Shown here piece after piece: positions 1 through 8,544 of a stretch of DNA of 8,544 nt. Every line of letters begins with the position of its first letter. Within the stretch, counting starts at the first letter, position 1. A program made the position numbers and the translations under genes. Below the pieces are notes generated by a model. It was given only the letters and a program-made list of their open reading frames with translations. It had not been told where the DNA came from and did no database searches. The stretch is from the IMG/VR virus record IMGVR_UViG_648276648_000007, positions 1 to 8,544 of that record; one strand, 5' to 3'. Origin of the DNA: a virus (Duplodnaviria; Heunggongvirae; Uroviricota; Caudoviricetes).

Positions 1-429
1 CATAACAAACCCATTAAATTCACAATTATTCATGGCGTATCCGCCAGCTGAGGAATAAGTAGTTATCACAACTCGTGAGGCTAATTCATCGGTACTGCCT
101 CCAGATCGGCGAAAGACTATAGGATACCACTTACCGCTTACTGCATTTGCAGGCGCTGAAAAAGTGTATTTTCGCATCCCTTTTTTATTGTCTATTTCGC
201 TTTTGCTGTAAACGTCCAGATCTTTAGGAGTCAACGTAATGTCAGCCGAACCATCGAACCTGACGCCATTAATGTTTATGGCTGTTTTTAATTTCGTCGC
301 GGTGTCGGCGTTCCCTGTCAGCGCCCCGGTGATCCCGCCGTTGAAAGTCTGGCGCGCACTCCATGTGTTAGCCGTGCTCAACAGGGGGATCTTTTCACCG
401 CTGGTACCGAGTTCTCTTAAACCAAGGTT
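1..429 (-). CDS. Phage tail-fibre C-terminal variable cassette (Sv'-type), partial; 143 codons from the crossover site to the window edge, no start codon of its own
   Basis: Minus-strand translation from 429 down to 1 has no stop and reads NLGLRELGTSGEKIPLLSTANTWSARQTFNGGITGALTGNADTATKLKTAININGVRFDGSADITLTPKDLDVYSKSEIDNKKG..., a pattern I recognise from P1 S / Mu S / P2 H-type tail fibres. It begins at the inversion site beside the invertase. Absent from the ORF track because it has no ATG and leaves the window. Confidence 0.8.
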
Positions 430-437
430 TAGGATTG
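412..437. other. Site-specific inversion crossover site (cix/gix-like): 12-bp imperfect inverted repeats around a 2-bp core
   Basis: TTCTCTTAAACC-AA-GGTTTAGGATTG. The inner 6 bp of each arm (TAAACC / GGTTTA) are a perfect inverted repeat, 8 of 12 arm positions match, and the centre is an AA dinucleotide, as in Gin/Cin/Hin/Pin sites. It lies at the junction of the tail-fibre cassette and the invertase gene. Confidence 0.65.
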
Positions 438-989
438 AAATGATGACGCAGGAAACTTTTTATAAAGCGTGGAAACAGCAACATCATAGATGATTGCAAC
501 CTGCTTACGGGGGATGCCATTCTCCAGCAATCGACGCATTTGCTGCCATGTTTCTTCTTGGTATTTAGGCCGACGGCCTCCTATTCGACCTTCTGCGCGA
601 GCTGCATCAAGTCCAGCGCGTGTACGTTCAACGATAAGCTCACGTTCCATTTCTGCCAGCGCCCCCATTACGTGAAAGAAAAAGCGCCCCATTGGTGTAC
701 TGGTGTCGATGGAGTCAGTGAGACTCCGGAAGTTAATTCCTCTGTCACGCAGCTCCTCCACCAGCACAACCAAGTGACGCATGCTGCGCCCAAGACGATC
801 TAACTTCCATACGACCAGGGTGTCACCTCTGGAAAGCATACGCAAAACCTTTCTTAGCCCAGGGCGTTCAGCCTTTTTGCCGCTCGCCTTATCCTCAAAA
901 ATTAGCTCACATCCTGCGCTTTCAAGGGCATTTCGTTGTAAAGCAGTGTTTTGTTCATTTGTTGATACGCGTACATAGCCTATTAGCAT
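429..989 (-). CDS. cin: Serine recombinase, DNA invertase of the Cin/Gin/Pin/Hin family (186 aa)
   Basis: The ORF translation begins MLIGYVRVSTNEQNTALQRNAL and contains VVWKLDRLGRSMRHL, GINFRSLTDSIDTSTPMGRFFFHVMGALAEMERELI and C-terminal IPRKQVAIIYDVAVSTLYKKF, near-identical in pattern to Cin/Gin/Pin/Hin. Catalytic Ser is S9 in YVRVST. The symbol cin is chosen from the P1-like neighbourhood; pin or gin orthology cannot be excluded without alignment. Confidence 0.95.
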   Translation of the reverse strand: MLIGYVRVSTNEQNTALQRNALESAGCELIFEDKASGKKAERPGLRKVLRMLSRGDTLVVWKLDRLGRSMRHLVVLVEELRDRGINFRSLTDSIDTSTPMGRFFFHVMGALAEMERELIVERTRAGLDAARAEGRIGGRRPKYQEETWQQMRRLLENGIPRKQVAIIYDVAVSTLYKKFPASSFQS

Positions 990-1116
990 ATTTTCTGCTC
1001 ACTATCGTTATTTATAGCAAGCTGCGGATTTTAATTAACAAAAACCAGTATGTGTGGAAATCACAAAGTACATACCGTTTCCCAATGATATTTAATTCAC
1101 TATTAAGGAAATAGTT
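990..1116. promoter_or_regulatory. Divergent intergenic promoter region between the invertase gene (leftward) and the lyd/dar-type operon (rightward)
   Basis: 127 bp AT-rich spacer between two divergently oriented start codons; AGGA sits 7 nt upstream of the ATG at 1117. Exact -10/-35 elements were not assigned. Confidence 0.4.
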
Positions 1117-1398
1117 ATGTGTGATTTCACAATAATGCTCCTCTCCATCCTTGGCGGGGTGCATTCGTTTCTGAATGGGGTTCGTGAAAAACGTTACGAA
1201 GCGTCATGCAGGCAATTGATGGCCGAGTGTATTGCTGCCGTACTTGCAGGCTTTATAGGCATGTATTTCGCGGAATATAAGGGTATGGATGAAAGTCTTC
1301 AGAATTGCGTGACTATTATTTGCAGCATCAATAACAGGCTCATTCTTGAAAAGTTACAAAGGATTATCGATTCGCACCTCAATAGAAATGCCTCTTAA
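1117..1398 (+). CDS. Small two-TM membrane protein, holin-like (LydC-like position), 93 aa
   Basis: Two hydrophobic segments (IMLLSILGGVHSFL and IAAVLAGFIGMYF) followed by a charged C-terminal tail; AGGA RBS 7 nt upstream; same architecture as the next ORF. Confidence 0.6.
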   Translation: MCDFTIMLLSILGGVHSFLNGVREKRYEASCRQLMAECIAAVLAGFIGMYFAEYKGMDESLQNCVTIICSINNRLILEKLQRIIDSHLNRNAS

Positions 1399-1465
1399 GC
1401 AACAAATGACCGGTTGAGAAGTTACTTTGCATACCATTACCTCCTGACAACGTAGGAGGGAACTT

Positions 1466-1795
1466 GTGCTTGACACACAGGAATTAGCTCCAGTTGCTAT
1501 TGCGCTCCTGCTTTCAGTAATTGGTGGGATAGGCACGTTCCTGATGGATGTCCGAGACGGTCGCCAGTCTGGCAATTTGTTAGGATTGGTTACGGAGATC
1601 TTTGTTGCAGTGACAGCTGGCGCGGTGGCGTACCTATTGGGGCAACACGAGGGCTGGGAGTTATCAATTACGTACTTAATGGTAACGATAGCCAGCAATA
1701 ACGGTCATGAGGTGATTTCAGGGATGAAACGAGTGAATATCGATAGCATTCTGAATGTTCTTACAAGTTTGGTGAAAAAGGGAGGCGGGAAATGA
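1466..1795 (+). CDS. lydA: Two-TM holin-like protein (LydA-type), 109 aa, GTG start
   Basis: Strong RBS AGGAGG at 1454-1459, 6 nt before GTG at 1466. Two TM segments (LAPVAIALLLSVIGGIGTFLMDV and IFVAVTAGAVAYLLG) separated by a short charged loop. The symbol rests on position next to cin and on size, as I recall the P1 order cin-lydC-lydA-lydB. Confidence 0.6.
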   Translation: MLDTQELAPVAIALLLSVIGGIGTFLMDVRDGRQSGNLLGLVTEIFVAVTAGAVAYLLGQHEGWELSITYLMVTIASNNGHEVISGMKRVNIDSILNVLTSLVKKGGGK

Positions 1796-2235
1796 TTGGC
1801 TGGGGTGTATGCGTTCTTGCGTTAGCCTTAGCCGATCGCTATTTGCTAAAACGCAAGGACATCACGCACTTAGAACTTGGTGATGTGGAAATTAAACCGG
1901 GTTTCATCCGGGTGCCGTTCAAATACCGGTCTAAATTCCCGTTTTTGCGCGGCGCAACGGTCAGATATTGGATCCGCGATGTTCAGAAGCCGACGACAGT
2001 GATTGAAGGCGAACAACGTTGTCTGACGTCGGCTGAACAGGGCGAAAACAGTGAATGGTTGTACATACCCACTGAATATATGGGTAAAGGAGAGCGACTG
2101 TGGCATTTCAACGTCATGGTTACGCATGGCGACTCGTTCATTAACCCGTTGTATCGGATTTTCCCTGTTACTCAGCAAATCCGCAGAAGTTACGTAATAA
2201 ATCTCGCACAGGATGTGTCAGATGACGAAAAATAA
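1792..2235 (+). CDS. lydB: 147-aa protein with N-terminal hydrophobic anchor or signal sequence, candidate antiholin (LydB-like)
   Basis: ATG at 1792 overlaps the stop of the previous gene (ATGA coupling); GGAGG RBS at 1781-1785; N-terminus MIGWGVCVLALALA is hydrophobic. Assignment is by synteny and size only. Confidence 0.5.
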   Translation: MIGWGVCVLALALADRYLLKRKDITHLELGDVEIKPGFIRVPFKYRSKFPFLRGATVRYWIRDVQKPTTVIEGEQRCLTSAEQGENSEWLYIPTEYMGKGERLWHFNVMVTHGDSFINPLYRIFPVTQQIRRSYVINLAQDVSDDEK

Positions 2236-2824
2236 GTATGCAACGGTCGATTTTGACCAGGTTAATGAAAAGGGGCTGAAATCCCTTATCGCGGCGATCA
2301 ATAAAACCGGGGTTACGGTAATTGAGGTTGACTCCAGCAACCGCGCAACAACGAAAGATGGCGTTAAAGTTAAAACCGCAAAGCTGGTTCTTAACGACGG
2401 ACAAATTCTTGCCATACAGGTAAACGATACTGGCGATATATCGTCTGTGAAGCTGAATGGAAAAGCTATTCCTAACGCTCAGTCGCCGGATATCAAGACG
2501 CTTGGTACCGTCATGGGGCAAGCGGCCAGCAAAAACTCCGCAAAATTCCAGAAATCACTGATCGCCAAAGCGAAACGTGTTGCCAATCCGGTAGACAAGA
2601 AACCGGCAGTAAAATCCAACTTTCAGCGCCTGCAAGAGGCAAAACAGCGGAATGCTCAGGTGGTTGCCGCTTATAAGTCCGCGCAGAATTCGGTGTCTTT
2701 CAATCAACAGCAGATCACTGATTTGCGGGCGAAGCTGGATACGGAGACGGGCCGACTCAATAACGAAAAGGCACGGAATGGCGAACTCAAACGTCGTCTT
2801 AAGCAACTGAAAGCAGGAAATTAA
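2213..2824 (+). CDS. hdf: Hdf-like protein (homolog of DarA fragment), about 200 aa
   Basis: Overlaps the end of the upstream gene. Carries the block ...LNDGQILAIQV...KNSAKFQK followed by a Lys/Gln-rich coiled-coil tail, which recurs in the next, larger gene. An alternative start at ATG 2222 has better spacing to AGGA at 2209-2212. Confidence 0.7.
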   Translation: MCQMTKNKYATVDFDQVNEKGLKSLIAAINKTGVTVIEVDSSNRATTKDGVKVKTAKLVLNDGQILAIQVNDTGDISSVKLNGKAIPNAQSPDIKTLGTVMGQAASKNSAKFQKSLIAKAKRVANPVDKKPAVKSNFQRLQEAKQRNAQVVAAYKSAQNSVSFNQQQITDLRAKLDTETGRLNNEKARNGELKRRLKQLKAGN

Positions 2825-2825
2825 C

Positions 2826-4745
2826 ATGGAACAGTTCAATATCAATAAAGGGGTGACGATCAAGCCTGGGCTTGACGTACTTCCCCCGCCAGTGACTGAT
2901 GATGAATATCGCGCATTAATGGCCGGAGAGGACCGCTATCTGATGACGGAATCCAACACCCTGGAGGAAATCGAGGCTACGTTCTTCTATGACACGCCGA
3001 TCCACTGGTGTGCTACGGATTTACTGGAGGCGATTAGTTCTACTCGTTTGCAGTTACACCGGACCATGCAGGCATTTGTCCGGGCATTGAACCAGAAGCT
3101 GAATGGTACCGGAATCTCTGCGGGGAGTGATAAAACGGGGGATGTGGCCCAGAGCGGCGCGCGAGCGATCGGCGGCGCTGAAATTGGCCGGGCACGTAAC
3201 GTTAACGGGCTGCCGGTCCTGCCAGCCATTATCCCGCTCAGTGATGGTCAGACTATCAGCATTCTGTTTCATAGCCCGACAGCGGAAAACCGGATCACCA
3301 ATAGCGATACGCTGGTTGCTTTCCAGTTCTTACTGAATAAAAAAGACGTTACTCACACCGTTGCTCCGATGAGTGGACGTGATATGACGCTGGCGCAGGT
3401 CACCATGAAACTTGCCAACCTTGCAGAGAAAAACTCGGCAAAATTCCAGCGTGCGCAGAAGAAGAAAAAAGCCCTGGTTGATGAAATAACCCAACTACAG
3501 GCTGACAGTGACCAGAAAGAGGATGCCATGAGCGACCTCGCGGATCAGGTGGCAGCGGTAGAAGGCCAGAAGGCAGATCTGGAGCAGAAAATTAACGCAG
3601 TTGCTTCGGAAGCGGATTCTCTTTATCAAGAAAATGAGCGTTTGCAGGCGGAGATTGATCAGCTCAATCGCACTGGTGGGCGCGATACCATTGCTCCAGC
3701 GGGGATGACTGGTGGGCACTCTCTCGCGCTGACGGATCGCCTTGCCAGTATCAAAAATCGTATGCATATGGACGGGGAAGCGACGCTCAGTAATGGTGCA
3801 TTAATGAAGCAATTCATTGGGGACGGCGAAGGGTATATCCAGTTAACCGATCCGGATGGCAGCGTGTACATGATCAAGGCTAAATCCATACAGGGTGTGG
3901 ACATGACAGATGCGATCGGCAAGCTGTTTAAAGCCTATAAAGCGGGTAATGTATCGGAATATCTGGTCCAACCAGAAGAACCTAAACCGGAAAACGTCGA
4001 ACCTGAACCAGTGGAGGATACCGGCAGCTCTTCGCCTGAACCAGAAGTCTCTGTAGGCGCATATCGATATGCCCTGCAAATGCGTCCGGCGGCCCCTGGC
4101 GCGATACCTGAAGGTAACAAAGCAATTCTGCCGCGCCCTGATAAAGGTGACCCGTATTATGAATACGCGCGCTACGGCATTGTTACTTACGATACCCCGC
4201 TTTCTGATCAGCAAATGAGTGAGTACGACCTGAAGTTATTGCCTCGCGAGGATTCTTTCGACTTCCTGGCGAAGACACTTACTAATGGTCCGTTTGGCAA
4301 ATATGCACAAAAAGCTCTGGAGCTGGCCACCAGCTCACCAGACGAGTTCCGCGTAATGCTGAAAACTCAGTTTCAAAAAACTTTCCCCAATATTGCGTTT
4401 CCGGGGGGCGCTGGCACCGAGAAAATGGTGCAGAGCATGATCAATGCATTGCAGGCCGAAGTCGGTGAGATTACTCAGCCAGAACCGGCCCCGGCACAGC
4501 CTGATGAAACGGTTAGCGAAGCAGATGCAGAGGCTAATAAAGCCATTGAATATCTCAATAGCGTGATGGATATGCAAAGCACTGACATGGCGGAGATCCG
4601 TAATGCCCGGGGTAATGCCCGGGAAGCGATTGCAGCCCTTCAGGCTGCCGGGCGTTTTGAGGAAAACGAAGAGCTGGTTAATGGCGCTGCTCGCCACCTG
4701 GCTGATCTGCTGGTAGCAATCCAGAAAGCGGGGGTAGTGGCATGA
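2826..4745 (+). CDS. darA: DarA-like capsid-associated anti-restriction protein, 639 aa
   Basis: Starts 1 nt after the hdf-like stop with AGGA 7 nt upstream. Multi-domain: N-terminal region, the Hdf-shared block around KNSAKFQR (nt 3429-3449), a long coiled coil (about nt 3450-3670) and two Pro/Glu-rich linkers. Size and position match what I recall for P1 DarA. Confidence 0.7.
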   Translation: MEQFNINKGVTIKPGLDVLPPPVTDDEYRALMAGEDRYLMTESNTLEEIEATFFYDTPIHWCATDLLEAISSTRLQLHRTMQAFVRALNQKLNGTGISAGSDKTGDVAQSGARAIGGAEIGRARNVNGLPVLPAIIPLSDGQTISILFHSPTAENRITNSDTLVAFQFLLNKKDVTHTVAPMSGRDMTLAQVTMKLANLAEKNSAKFQRAQKKKKALVDEITQLQADSDQKEDAMSDLADQVAAVEGQKADLEQKINAVASEADSLYQENERLQAEIDQLNRTGGRDTIAPAGMTGGHSLALTDRLASIKNRMHMDGEATLSNGALMKQFIGDGEGYIQLTDPDGSVYMIKAKSIQGVDMTDAIGKLFKAYKAGNVSEYLVQPEEPKPENVEPEPVEDTGSSSPEPEVSVGAYRYALQMRPAAPGAIPEGNKAILPRPDKGDPYYEYARYGIVTYDTPLSDQQMSEYDLKLLPREDSFDFLAKTLTNGPFGKYAQKALELATSSPDEFRVMLKTQFQKTFPNIAFPGGAGTEKMVQSMINALQAEVGEITQPEPAPAQPDETVSEADAEANKAIEYLNSVMDMQSTDMAEIRNARGNAREAIAALQAAGRFEENEELVNGAARHLADLLVAIQKAGVVA

Positions 4746-5107
4746 CACTATCAGCTATTGAGTTAATGGATCTCAGCGATAAGTTGGATGCTCTGATGTC
4801 CAAAGCGGCGACCGCGAGTGGCATGGAGTTGCTGGATATCAGCGATGAAATTGACCAGATCATGCAACAGATGGGGTACGGCGCATCCGGCAGCGGTAGT
4901 GGCGAGGAAAAACAACCTTCGGTGCATGATGGTGTGCCAAAACTGGTTGCTGATTTCCTGGCTGATAAATTCGTCGATCAGAGCACCGATGCATTTATCG
5001 GTACGTTGCAGGACTTAAGTCAATATGTTGGCACATACATCGACCTGGACCAGGTTAAACAGCACACGGCGGCATGGATAGCCGCCAACATTAAAGAGGC
5101 GGTATAA
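4742..5107 (+). CDS. ddrA: Small acidic protein, DdrA-like, 121 aa
   Basis: ATGA start/stop overlap with the darA-like gene; Asp/Glu-rich with a GASGSGSGEE linker; size and position match my recollection of P1 ddrA. Confidence 0.6.
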   Translation: MTLSAIELMDLSDKLDALMSKAATASGMELLDISDEIDQIMQQMGYGASGSGSGEEKQPSVHDGVPKLVADFLADKFVDQSTDAFIGTLQDLSQYVGTYIDLDQVKQHTAAWIAANIKEAV

Positions 5108-5119
5108 GGCGTAACAGGG

Positions 5120-6808
5120 ATGAGTTTAAACGATCAGATAGTTATGGCCACCAGCAGCGGATACAACGGTGTTGCGCCATATACCAGCTTGCTATTACAT
5201 CGGGCATCCGGCATCAAAGACATTATTCATCTGATCAGGCTGCTTTCCCGAACAGATCCCCAGGATGAACAGCTTGTACAAGTGCTTGCGCATTTTGTTC
5301 GAATGCCTGTTGCCGACGTGAATAAATGGTGCCGATTATTCGGTATCAGCAATTCGTTACTTCGCGGCTTGTTAAATCACGCATCCTCCCTTGGGCGCGA
5401 TGGCTTTGACGAGATAGCGCAGGCGATAAAAAACGGAGATATGCCACCAGCTATTGACTGGTTTTCCATTCGCCCAACCAGGGTGAAAGCATTCCTTAGC
5501 GCGGCGCATTCGGCATCACCATTGGCAGAAATGGTTCAGAGGTTGTCGCTCATATTCACAGACCATACCGCGTTGGGTGATCTGACTCTGGACGAGATGA
5601 AAGAAGCCTCCATTCAGTGGGCCGATCAACAAAATGAGGTTAACTCAGACTTCTTGCCAGCATTCAGGAAGGCCGTTATTAAAGCGGATGATGCCCGTGG
5701 AATTCTGAAGGCATTTAAGGCATTGCAAAGTCGGGTTAATAAACATGTCGGTGATATCGATGGGGTAACGGCGGAAGGCAGGGATATCCTTAAAGAGCAC
5801 GGCATAACGCCAGAGTTTATTGATGAGATCAGGACTGATATGCAGCGTGAGGTCGTATCGTCCCTGCAAATTGTAGCCAGAGCGTTGGCGGATGCTAATC
5901 CGAAGAGTGCGGCCATTGTTAACCGGGTTATTGGTGATATTGAAGCATCGGAGGGCATGGGGGCGCTGAAACTCTTCCTTTCGCGAGCGTTTAATCCTAA
6001 CGGCAATATTCTCCCTGGCATTATTGGTGAGGCTAAAAGGTATGTCAGTGAAGAAGAACTTGAGCAGCTTGACCAACTACTTAAGCGATTCTCATATAAC
6101 CCGCAGACACGCTGGCAAATGAATCAGCGAAGAATGGGTTCGGTCCACGAGAAAGTGTTATCTGCCATGAACAGTGCGATCGCAAACTCATCCGTATCTG
6201 AAGAAAAAGCTCTTGAGTGGGCCGACTCTTTTATCACGGAAGAAGTGGAAGAAGCCCGCGCTGGACAGAATGGTGGGATAGACCTGCGCAAGGAACTTGC
6301 TGATATTTATCGCCTGACCGGCGGTAAAATTTCGACCTTATCAAAGGTGGTTCACCACCAGGGAAGGGCATATGCAAATCTTAATGGTGTTGTTGCTGTC
6401 AATTTGAACGATGAAAATGCAAGTGCACTGTGGCACGAGCTGGGTCATCATCTTGAGTACAGTAACCCTGGTTTGTTAGAGAAAGCCCGGTCATTCCTGA
6501 AGGCCAATGTTGAAGGGGATAAGCCATCTTTCGTTAATATCGGTGGGCGTGGCAAGCCTGAATGGTGCTTCAGATCTCGATTGAGTAATATTTATATGGC
6601 GAAGGTATACCCGCCAGCCTCAGTAAGTAACACCGGGAAAATTCGGCAGAAATCACCGACTATTTCCAAAACGTCAGCAACGGAAGTATTCTCTATGGCT
6701 CTTCAGTTGTATCATGACAAAGAGGCCGCTGCCGCATCACTGATGAATGGTGACGGATTGCTGGAACTGTTATTAGGTGTGGCAAAGGAGCTAAATAATG
6801 CAGATTAA
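5120..6808 (+). CDS. Uncharacterised 562-aa protein with a single HExxH zincin-type motif (HELGH, residues 439-443); occupies the ddrB position
   Basis: Long clean ORF in the operon's codon context; WHELGHHLEY is encoded at nt 6431-6460; the rest is largely helical and charged. I cannot confirm similarity to P1 DdrB from memory, and I recall DdrB as considerably larger. Confidence 0.85.
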   Translation: MSLNDQIVMATSSGYNGVAPYTSLLLHRASGIKDIIHLIRLLSRTDPQDEQLVQVLAHFVRMPVADVNKWCRLFGISNSLLRGLLNHASSLGRDGFDEIAQAIKNGDMPPAIDWFSIRPTRVKAFLSAAHSASPLAEMVQRLSLIFTDHTALGDLTLDEMKEASIQWADQQNEVNSDFLPAFRKAVIKADDARGILKAFKALQSRVNKHVGDIDGVTAEGRDILKEHGITPEFIDEIRTDMQREVVSSLQIVARALADANPKSAAIVNRVIGDIEASEGMGALKLFLSRAFNPNGNILPGIIGEAKRYVSEEELEQLDQLLKRFSYNPQTRWQMNQRRMGSVHEKVLSAMNSAIANSSVSEEKALEWADSFITEEVEEARAGQNGGIDLRKELADIYRLTGGKISTLSKVVHHQGRAYANLNGVVAVNLNDENASALWHELGHHLEYSNPGLLEKARSFLKANVEGDKPSFVNIGGRGKPEWCFRSRLSNIYMAKVYPPASVSNTGKIRQKSPTISKTSATEVFSMALQLYHDKEAAAASLMNGDGLLELLLGVAKELNNAD

Positions 6809-7109
6809 AATCGCAGCGCCATTAGGCGGAGATGCCATTATCGAATTTGATGATAATGAAGAAGTTTCCGGGCGTTTAAGCATTATCTCCGGTGACATTA
6901 CCGAGGACATGATCGCTGAAGCCATAGCTGGGGCAAATCCCAATAGCTATATGGGATTCGTTAACACCCTTGATGCTCCCGCAAGTGATGTTCTCCGAAC
7001 GCTGCATCTTTACGCTGGCTGGTTTGTTGATTGGCCAGCAGTAGATGGTGGCGATGATGACGACGACGATGATGATTTTGGTGATCATGTAGACCAGATC
7101 GTATATTAA
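6798..7109 (+). CDS. Small, very acidic protein, 103 aa, with a C-terminal run of eight Asp
   Basis: AGGAG RBS at 6786-6790, 7 nt before the ATG; overlaps the end of the 562-aa gene by 11 nt; eight consecutive Asp codons at 7053-7076; roughly 25 acidic against 3 Lys/Arg residues. Confidence 0.8.
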   Translation: MQIKIAAPLGGDAIIEFDDNEEVSGRLSIISGDITEDMIAEAIAGANPNSYMGFVNTLDAPASDVLRTLHLYAGWFVDWPAVDGGDDDDDDDDFGDHVDQIVY

Positions 7110-7175
7110 CTCCCTGATTGTGCAAAAATAATCTGTTCTGATATGTTAATTGTGTACTTAAAGTAAACGCGTAGT

Positions 7176-7203
7176 GGCTTGCTTTAGGTTATGGAAGCAA
7201 GCC
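7176..7203 (+). terminator. Perfect 9-bp stem / 10-nt loop hairpin 67 nt downstream of the operon's last stop codon; possible terminator
   Basis: GGCTTGCTT-taggttatgg-AAGCAAGCC. It is not followed by a clean T-run, so intrinsic terminator function is uncertain. Confidence 0.3.
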
Positions 7204-7722
7204 GTTACCTAATATGTTAGATCAAAAAAAATTAATTTTTGCGTTTCGCTCACCACATATTGAACACTTTAGTCGATCTTTTAATTCTTCCAGAGTCAAT
7301 CCTGAAGCTACATATTGTTTAATATCTCTTCTTTATTGCATATTCAGAGGGTAAAGATATACACATACTAAAATGAATTAGCTTAGCTCGTTATTAATCA
7401 GGATTCGATGAGACCGCTCCATTTTAGGGAATAACATTTATAACTAAAACACATCGTCTTTAACTCTCACAATATAGATTCAATTTAATACCCAATCGGC
7501 AGTAATTAATTTGATTCTAATTTTTAAGTAGATTTCAAGTCTACATCCATTAAAGCCCTGTTAATTAACAGGCTATCTATTTTTGACAGTTATTATTTTT
7601 GTGATAATTTAATTGTTTGTCTTTTGTGCTTATTTTTGATTGTTTTTTGATCTATTTTGTCAATTTTTATTCTGTGAATTGAGTTTTTTCTAATAGTCCA
7701 TTGGGTTTTCAAGGCTATTATT

Positions 7723-7738
7723 TGTGATTTTGATCACA
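7723..7738. promoter_or_regulatory. Consensus CRP (cAMP receptor protein) binding site
   Basis: TGTGA-TTTTGA-TCACA matches the TGTGA-N6-TCACA consensus exactly, with arms extendable to 7 bp (TTTGTGA / TCACAAA, 7721-7740). It lies about 120 bp upstream of the porin ATG, near a candidate -35 TTGAAA (7767-7772) and -10 ATAAAC (7789-7794). Confidence 0.5.
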
Positions 7739-7850
7739 AAAATACCTTGATTTTTATTTGCAAAACTTGAAACACGAATCCAAAAAAGATAAACATTTGT
7801 CCGCAGTGACTTCTTTTCTACTGAAAAGTTCAATCTAAAGGGCAAAAAAA

Positions 7851-8192
7851 ATGAAAAAAATCACAGTGGCACTCTCTGCGGTTGCAGCATCTGTCCTGAT
7901 GGCAATGTCTGCGCAAGCAGCTGAAATCTACAACAAAGACGGTAATAAACTGGATCTGTACGGCAAAGTTAACGCAGAACATTACTTCTCTTCTTCAGCT
8001 AGTGATGACGGAGATAAGACTTATGCTCGTCTGGGATTCAAAGGTGAAACTCAGATTAATGACCAGTTAACCGGTTTTGGTCAGTGGGAGTACGAATTTA
8101 AAGGTAACCGTACTGAATCTGAGGGCTCTGATAAAGATAAAACTCGTCTTGCATTTGCTGGCCTCCGTTTTGCTGATTATGGTTCAATCGAC
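7851..8192 (+). pseudogene. nmpC: General porin of the NmpC/OmpD/Lc (OmpC/OmpF superfamily) type; 5' fragment of 114 codons, interrupted by IS26
   Basis: Signal peptide [23 protein letters not shown], then the classic mature porin N-terminus [17 protein letters not shown]...[26 protein letters not shown]...[17 protein letters not shown]. The frame then runs 8 codons into IS26 (GTVANSRW) and stops. The symbol is tentative: the signal peptide most resembles NmpC/Lc as I remember them. Confidence 0.85.
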
Positions 8193-8206
8193 GGCACTGT
8201 TGCAAA
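8193..8206. repeat. IS26 14-bp terminal inverted repeat (IRL)
   Basis: GGCACTGTTGCAAA at the exact point where the porin reading frame is broken. Confidence 0.9.
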
Positions 8207-8255
8207 TAGTCGGTGGTGATAAACTTATCATCCCCTTTTGCTGATGGAGCTGCAC

Positions 8256-8544
8256 ATGAACCCATTCAAAGGCCGGCATTTTCAGCGTGACATCATTCTG
8301 TGGGCCGTACGCTGGTACTGCAAATACGGCATCAGTTACCGTGAGCTGCAGGAGATGCTGGCTGAACGCGGAGTGAATGTCGATCACTCCACGATTTACC
8401 GCTGGGTTCAGCGTTATGCGCCTGAAATGGAAAAACGGCTGCGCTGGTACTGGCGTAACCCTTCCGATCTTTGCCCGTGGCACATGGATGAAACCTACGT
8501 GAAGGTCAATGGCCGCTGGGCGTATCTGTACCGGCCGTCGACAG
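8256..8544 (+). CDS. tnpA: IS26 transposase Tnp26 (DDE, IS6 family), N-terminal 96 codons, truncated by the window edge
   Basis: Translation MNPFKGRHFQRDIILWAVRWYCKYGISYRELQEMLAERGVNVDHSTIYRWVQRYAPEMEKRLRWYWRNPSDLCPWHMDETYVKVNGRWAYLYR matches Tnp26. The last codons read PST rather than the AVDS I recall (see findings). Confidence 0.9.
   Translation, partial: MNPFKGRHFQRDIILWAVRWYCKYGISYRELQEMLAERGVNVDHSTIYRWVQRYAPEMEKRLRWYWRNPSDLCPWHMDETYVKVNGRWAYLYRPST

Follow-up and report, generated by a model that had tools for sequence, protein, structure and literature searches.

Here, we analyzed an 8,544-nt stretch of viral DNA (positions 1 to 8,544 of the IMG/VR record IMGVR_UViG_648276648_000007, hereafter the window), and in particular two overlapping genes at positions 5120–7109, which encode proteins of 562 and 103 residues. 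Gene order and sequence identity place the whole window as the cin/darA-operon region of a P1-like phage-plasmid, with 5120–7109 as its distal end, and identify the two genes as ddrB and hxr, both already known from phage P1, rather than as replacements of these. The P1 Dar system is the classic capsid-delivered anti-restriction system, and in the window its ddrB gene is present as a short allele devoid of the ParB domain found in P1 DdrB. The results presented below show this to be the known ddrB–hxr pair with an intact, ParB-less ddrB allele, make it probable that this allele is functional, and suggest Hxr as a possible partner of its product.

The order of the genes, cin-lydC-lydA-lydB-hdf-darA-ddrA-ddrB-hxr, is collinear with that of P1 (NC_005856), ddrB lying in its usual slot after ddrA and before hxr, in agreement with the dar-type operon context recognized in the original prediction, which had been made from the letters of the window alone. 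Pairwise BLAST delimited two collinear blocks, namely window 237–5156, corresponding to positions 277–5196 of the P1 locus (L001) at 97.8% identity, and window 5162–7330, corresponding to 6501–8665 of the same locus; the ddrB–hxr pair itself shares 98% nucleotide identity with P1. When positions 5120–7109 were compared with the phage collection by megablast, 19 records were retrieved at 98–99.6% identity, among them P1, P7, SJ46, RCS47, JL22 and phi456, and the matched features are named ddrB and hxr wherever these records give gene names, and hypothetical proteins elsewhere. The short ddrB allele occupies 5120–6808 (+ strand; 562 residues, 61.8 kDa, product matching phrog_2299) and hxr 6798–7109 (+ strand; 103 residues, product matching phrog_2292). 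The two genes thus share 11 nt, at the ddrB stop and the hxr start, and a purine-rich stretch is found directly 5' of the ATG in both genes. Both open reading frames (ORFs) and their overlap, as well as the HELGHH motif at 6434–6451 and the run of eight aspartates at 7053–7076, were confirmed as originally described.

The P1 ddrB gene is considerably longer than the one in the window, with 2988 nt encoding 995 residues (P1_gp022, YP_006491.1), as had been correctly noted at the outset. Alignment of the two proteins revealed that short DdrB consists of MSLNDQIVMATS (codons 1–12), followed by Ser-Gly and by the equivalent of P1 residues 448–995. The MSLNDQIVMATS start is identical to P1 at 10 of 12 positions, and residues 15–562 are identical to P1 DdrB 448–995 at 537 of 548 positions (98%). 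A net total of 433 residues is therefore absent in frame, P1 residues 13–447 being replaced by Ser-Gly. Similarly, the phrog_2299 match of short DdrB covers only positions 442–995 of the 995-position profile. PF18763 (DdrB-like ParB) matches P1 DdrB at residues 36–167 with an E-value of 2e-39, and no match to it was obtained with short DdrB at E<=0.1, which places the protein outside this domain family. Accordingly, the short allele lacks the ParB domain (36–167), the helical region after it and the Gly-rich linker present in P1 DdrB, and the predicted product is 62 kDa as compared to 109 kDa for P1 DdrB. Both forms, on the other hand, share the slot after ddrA, the HExxH metallopeptidase domain and the overlap with the downstream hxr. 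An alignment of this kind to P1 DdrB had been named beforehand as the outcome that would speak against an undescribed injected effector module distinct from ddrB and hxr. With known genes in canonical order, this proposal fell, and the original interpretation is thus supported in part, for the metallopeptidase and the size discrepancy, and not for the novelty of the module.

The retained ddrB start, together with the Ser-Gly junction codons (5156–5161), spans 5120–5161 (+ strand) and contains the point at which the short form departs from the long one, as defined by the P1 alignment. The short allele keeps the native ribosome-binding site along with the first 12 codons. In P1 DdrB, the breakpoint falls within the Gly-rich linker, between GGLFESVSGGS and YNGV, and residues 1–17 of short DdrB are predicted to be disordered in an AlphaFold2 (AF2) model, which indicates that the cut lies in a linker separating structured parts of the protein. 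This junction, ACCAGCAGCGG(A/C)TAC, recurs in E. albertii RM9974 and E. coli E148. We considered, and rejected, a fresh deletion of a present-day P1-type sequence. The junction codons AGC GGA match neither P1 flank exactly, and the first 37 nt of ddrB (5120–5156) contain five differences from P1 (∼86% identity) as compared to ∼98% identity on both flanks. These mismatches indicate that the event is either old or derived from another parental allele, and suggest that the flanks of short ddrB were recombined later.

To determine how widely the short allele is distributed, we used a 161-nt query across the junction and found the junction contiguous in 32 of 472 P1-like plasmid records (∼7%). Four of these records are identical to the window, 17 (E. 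coli, E. fergusonii and E. albertii plasmids) share about 96% identity with it, and 11 (E. albertii plasmids) share 91.7%; the junction sequence is alike in all three identity classes. Among E. coli complete genomes carrying a match, the junction is spanned in 9 of 480. None of the 19 matching records in the phage collection contains the short junction, all 19 matches beginning at query position 43, past the junction. The copies in the window, in pE148-2 and in p2RM9974 are all intact ORFs of 562 codons, and the three alleles differ pairwise by a synonymous divergence (dS) of 0.03–0.10, with a ratio of nonsynonymous to synonymous divergence (dN/dS) of 0.16–0.21. Such values among diverged, intact copies point to purifying selection, and by these sequence comparisons the short allele is intact, selectively maintained and naturally circulating. 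Full-length darB (6768 nt) is also kept in a plasmid with the identical short allele.

The P1 antisense ORF iddB ('internal to ddrB'; 5714–6112 of the P1 locus) lies wholly within the segment absent from the short allele, and the 32 plasmids tolerate its loss, which speaks against iddB having an important role. In one group of P1-like plasmids from E. albertii, gldA (glycerol dehydrogenase; p2RM9974 1610–2713) is found on the opposite strand between ddrA and short ddrB and is a cargo insertion within the dar operon. In the short-ddrB plasmid NZ_CP122864.1, a SIR2-family gene (7529–8833 of that plasmid, outside the window) is located near darB/ulx, where it adjoins a truncated ref and a Tn3 transposase, and may be a defence cargo of the phage-plasmid.

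ParB-less DdrB proteins were also encountered in more distant P1-like elements. A word-based protein search retrieved 558-aa proteins with 34–35% identity at 97% query coverage, the sole one with a source name being from Klebsiella pneumoniae. These 558-aa DdrB proteins begin at the boundary seen in the short allele and are encoded in an operon of the order lydA-lydB-hdf-darA-ddrA-ddrB(558)-small gene, followed by ssb and lyz. Further P1-like loci encode DdrB proteins of 1014 (L009), 977 (L011) and 724 residues (L012), all of which have the ParB domain, and of 530 residues (L010), in which it is absent. As judged from these sequences, the absence of ParB is the native state of DdrB in two distant lineages of P1-like elements (558 and 530 aa). 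Either loss or gain of the ParB part may have separated the short and long forms. An exhaustive profile search yielded 496 DdrB homologues at E<=1e-3, of which only P1-like proteins align to profile positions 1–320, the others matching ∼320–557, i.e. the peptidase domain. At a more stringent threshold (E<=1e-10), 77 homologues remain, of which 14 carry the ddrB-ParB domain, two an inorganic pyrophosphatase domain, two Mu F and one the Mu portal, and about 60 have N-terminal regions without any Pfam domain. The fusions to Mu F and Mu portal point to a head-associated role. By its distribution over these sequences, the peptidase domain is a mobile module of phage head-associated proteins, and the ParB head is variably present among P1-like lineages.

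What remains of DdrB in the window is predicted to comprise two parts. In the AF2 model (mean predicted local distance difference test score, pLDDT, 78.5), residues 20–330 are all-helical; the corresponding middle region, residues 18–330 (5171–6109, + strand), is restricted to P1-like DdrB. A weak sub-threshold match to Pfam LPD5 was obtained at residues 302–343, and no assignable domain was found in the helical region 18–330, which leaves the metallopeptidase (MPTase) as the sole recognizable domain of short DdrB. The latter, a predicted C-terminal zincin domain, extends over residues 336–562 (6125–6805, + strand). It contains the sole HExxH zinc-binding/catalytic motif of the protein, HELGHH (residues 439–444, with H439, E440 and H443; 6434–6451, + strand), and residues 340–560 are modelled as an alpha/beta domain in which most block pLDDT values range from 80 to 97.

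Conservation lends further weight to this assignment. Among the 77 homologues, R416, H439, E440, H443, Y492 and E522 are invariant, and E446, E481, Y497 and S525 are conserved in at least 90% of the sequences; the HExxH residues are also invariant in a 36-sequence alignment. As the most distant of the 77 homologues share only 16–27% identity with the window protein, the invariance of H439, E440 and H443 sets the motif above a chance occurrence. Conservation of the motif, on which the original proposal had been made to depend, was thus observed, and with the gluzincin-like fold described below a zincin-like metallopeptidase is well supported as a prediction.

When the modelled domain was compared to known structures, fold-likeness figures were obtained for the Pro-Pro endopeptidase (PPEP) PPEP-3 ('ATLF-like' domain; 8.2) and PPEP-2 (7.7), followed by Certhrax (7.2), anthrax lethal factor (LF; 7.1) and MtfA (6.9). 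The model thereby supports a LF/PPEP/MtfA-like gluzincin fold for the DdrB C-terminal domain. Sequence identity to these proteins (MEROPS M34-like) is, however, limited to 12–15%, and no significant sequence-profile match to them was found. In this fold, the third zinc ligand is a glutamate on a helix located tens of residues past HExxH, and LF and PPEP display a Tyr-x6-Glu arrangement, which is not evident in the DdrB domain. The candidate third-ligand/catalytic segment, delimited by conservation, spans 6560–6685 (+ strand) and includes E481 (6560–6562), Y492, Y497 and E522 (6683–6685), the last of which is placed by the AF2 model at the start of helix 523–529 (TEVFSMALQ). We infer that E522, or alternatively E481, is a likelier third ligand than the glutamate 6–11 residues past the motif that had been suggested initially; E446 is conserved in this interval, but E481 and E522 lie at the usual gluzincin spacing.

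Searches of Pfam, NCBIfam and PDB profiles with DdrB returned sub-threshold matches only and no curated peptidase family. Apart from phrog_2299 and the sub-threshold LPD5 match, no informative family for the 562-aa protein was found in Pfam, NCBIfam or PHROGs, and PDB profile searches, whether full-length or domain-only, gave coiled-coil/designed-helix noise and one match around HExxH to a botulinum-like toxin at E 0.2. Likewise, zincin-domain sequences compared one at a time with Pfam gave sub-threshold matches only, no Pfam model covering this MPTase clade. An MPTase domain has, however, been predicted in DdrB by Iyer, Burroughs, Anand, de Souza and Aravind in 2017 (PMC5512222), and the zincin domain described here corresponds to it. 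The MPTase domains of their polyvalent proteins (e.g. ArdC, N4 vRNAP, TraC1) are likewise C-terminal HExxH zincins in phage-delivered multidomain proteins, for which a role in effector release/processing has been proposed. In contrast to these proteins, short DdrB is devoid of the recognized effector head (ParB) and hence no longer obviously polyvalent.

The partner protein, Hxr, is strongly acidic: its 103 residues include 24 Asp/Glu and only three Lys/Arg, giving a net charge of −21, close to the −20 originally estimated, and an isoelectric point (pI) of about 4.05. It matches phrog_2292 over its full length (3.9e-60, positions 1–103 of 105), and P1 Hxr (P1_gp021, YP_006490.1, 102 residues) is a full-length orthologue with the same position and the same ddrB overlap. 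The two proteins differ by a few substitutions and by one extra Asp in the acidic run of the window protein (D8, residues 86–93, 7053–7076, + strand; DEDDDDD in P1). The AF2 model (pLDDT 75.6) has a beta-beta-beta-alpha-alpha-beta core and a tail that is disordered from about residue 85, pLDDT being below 50 at residues 85–87 and 90–103. Hxr is thus modelled as a globular alpha/beta core of ∼80 residues with a disordered acidic C-terminal tail (residues 83–103; 7044–7106, + strand), which ends in the hydrophobic IVY.

Among the homologues found, Hxr is confined to P1-like elements of Escherichia, Klebsiella, Cronobacter, Enterobacter and Raoultella. In six lineages, and with any DdrB architecture, a gene of 96–104 codons overlaps the ddrB stop by 4–17 nt or starts one base after it, and the encoded proteins are all acidic (net charge −10 to −21). 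The motif PNSxxG..VLR..GW.V.WP..EG is common to the closer homologues, in which it precedes an acidic tail ending in I/V-V-N/Y. Most Hxr homologues have kept an acidic tail with a V(N/Y)-type end, and the Asp8 run is limited to the Escherichia lineage. Beyond phrog_2292, no Hxr family was found in Pfam, NCBIfam or PHROGs, and no fold match was obtained.

Several studies of the long P1 protein indicate how the short allele might operate. P1 DdrB is described as being processed to about 76 kDa before packaging (PMC5512222), as aiding DarB addition to the capsid (PMC9024508) and as depending on Hdf and DarA for head incorporation, with a packaging order given (PMC12810830); the literature also assigns it to the Dar arm associated with EcoB and EcoK. 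P1 DdrB was detected in virions with 59.5% coverage (PMC9024508), and the peptide positions are not given in the supplement to this proteome. By extension, short DdrB would still be loaded into the capsid via the Hdf/DarA-dependent pathway and would continue to assist in DarB-dependent protection from type I restriction. The ParB-type effector head would be the sole loss, which fits the modular logic of polyvalent proteins. The zincin domain may serve as a processing protease, acting on itself or on co-packaged Dar cargo, and a disordered loop modelled between the helical region and the zincin (residues 326–332, ∼759–765 in P1 numbering) is a candidate processing site. Cleavage there would yield an N-terminal product of ∼84 kDa in P1, as compared to the 76 kDa estimated from gels. 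Through translational coupling, Hxr would be produced at a constant ratio to the DdrB C-terminus.

Is the short allele truly functional? A decaying pseudogene, left by a recent, accidental and functionless internal deletion, would be in line with the long form being the majority in E. coli P1-like elements, with the dispensability of both hxr and ddrB for plaque formation on a permissive host (PMC10695390) and with the label given by PGAP, the annotation pipeline of NCBI, which in NZ_CP122864.1 calls short ddrB a pseudogene that is 'incomplete; missing N-terminus'. The PGAP feature (91816–93477, equivalent to window 5147–6808) starts 27 nt inside the intact ORF, and as a result of the label PLSDB shows no gene at short ddrB. 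We consider the label to be wrong, and the allele is probably mis-annotated systematically. Decay as such appears very unlikely, given that the deletion is in frame with the native start kept, that the three alleles have remained intact and under apparent constraint at the divergence reported above, that the junction is common to E. coli, E. fergusonii and E. albertii plasmids, and that equally extended ParB-less DdrB proteins are native in two distant lineages. Nonetheless, besides the pseudogene label and the dispensability of both genes, further points weigh against a functional ParB-less DdrB partnered by Hxr. Iyer et al. predicted the packaged part of P1 DdrB to be the N-terminal, ParB-containing fragment (PMC5512222), and packaging, processing and DarB loading of the short allele are extrapolated by analogy from the long P1 protein. 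The main weakness is that capsid targeting may reside in the absent part, in which case the short form might not be packaged. In addition, the paper on the P1 virion proteome does not mention Hxr in its main text (PMC9024508); with only three Lys/Arg residues, Hxr could easily be missed by tryptic mass spectrometry.

As for Hxr, the P1 record and its derivatives annotate it as an Xre-type transcriptional repressor, on the grounds that residues 23–80 are 28% identical to the Bacillus Xre repressor, and the label has spread as 'putative repressor'. This assignment is hardly credible, since neither a helix-turn-helix nor any other Pfam/NCBIfam match was found at E<=0.1, the modelled topology (beta3-alpha2-beta plus tail) is not a five-helix helix-turn-helix fold, and Hxr, with its pI of 4.05 and three basic residues, does not look much like a DNA-binding protein. 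Somewhat better placed, yet still unlikely, is a role as an anti-defence effector in its own right, independent of DdrB, acting as an acidic DNA mimic (Ocr/ArdA-like) or decoy. Similar to Ocr and ArdA, Hxr is small, strongly acidic, encoded by a mobile element and set in an anti-restriction operon, and its acidity is kept across lineages. Unlike these proteins, it has its charge concentrated in a disordered tail and the timing of a late-operon gene, and neither sequence similarity to Ocr/ArdA nor fold similarity to a known DNA mimic of this type was found. The likeliest of the roles considered has the retained part of DdrB as its target or partner, Hxr serving either as a chaperone or to restrain the protease until packaging; we give this role somewhat less than even chances, and it is suggested by the gene linkage. 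More speculatively, Hxr could be the founder of an orphan-fold acidic family, either an obligate partner of the DdrB zincin (inhibitor, chaperone or packaging adaptor) or an anti-defence decoy, with the helical and zincin module plus Hxr forming the conserved Dar core and the ParB head being an exchangeable effector, gained and lost repeatedly as host defences change.

The genes themselves are already known, and a metallopeptidase had been put forward both by the P1 annotation and by Iyer et al. Within the literature searched, what appears undescribed is an intact, selectively maintained ParB-less ddrB in Escherichia P1-like plasmids, together with DdrB that is natively ParB-less in two further lineages, the assignment of an LF/PPEP-like fold to the DdrB domain and the view of Hxr as a conserved acidic orphan-fold partner that is not Xre-like. 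A selectively maintained ParB-less DdrB amounts to a ready-made domain-deletion experiment, which indicates that the helical and zincin part with Hxr may be an independently useful unit and the ParB head an optional effector. Moreover, two annotation problems are spreading through databases, namely the short allele as a pseudogene and Hxr as a repressor, the latter label being about twenty years old.

The remaining genes of the window were assigned by P1 collinearity: cin at 429–989 (− strand) and, all on the + strand, lydC at 1117–1398, lydA at 1466–1795, lydB at 1792–2235, hdf at 2213–2824, darA at 2826–4745 and ddrA at 4742–5107, whose product also matches phrog_1855. Pfam matches among these upstream genes comprise LydB, holin, DarA_N and DarA_C. 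Downstream of hxr, an AT-rich spacer (7110–7850; GC 0.29–0.36) contains a single terminator-like hairpin (7557–7572, + strand), and P1 homology stops at window position 7330. After the spacer comes an OmpC/OmpD-like porin gene (7851–8219; Pfam Porin_1, 7e-38) of which the initial 122 codons are present, the remainder being cut off by a copy of IS26 (8190–8544) that reaches the end of the window. The contiguous porin–IS26 junction of the window was not found among the best 5000 plasmid matches. P1 has isaB and IS1 where the window has the porin gene; the latter is also present in P7, JL22 and phi456, and it is uninterrupted in the otherwise identical plasmid NZ_CP122864.1.

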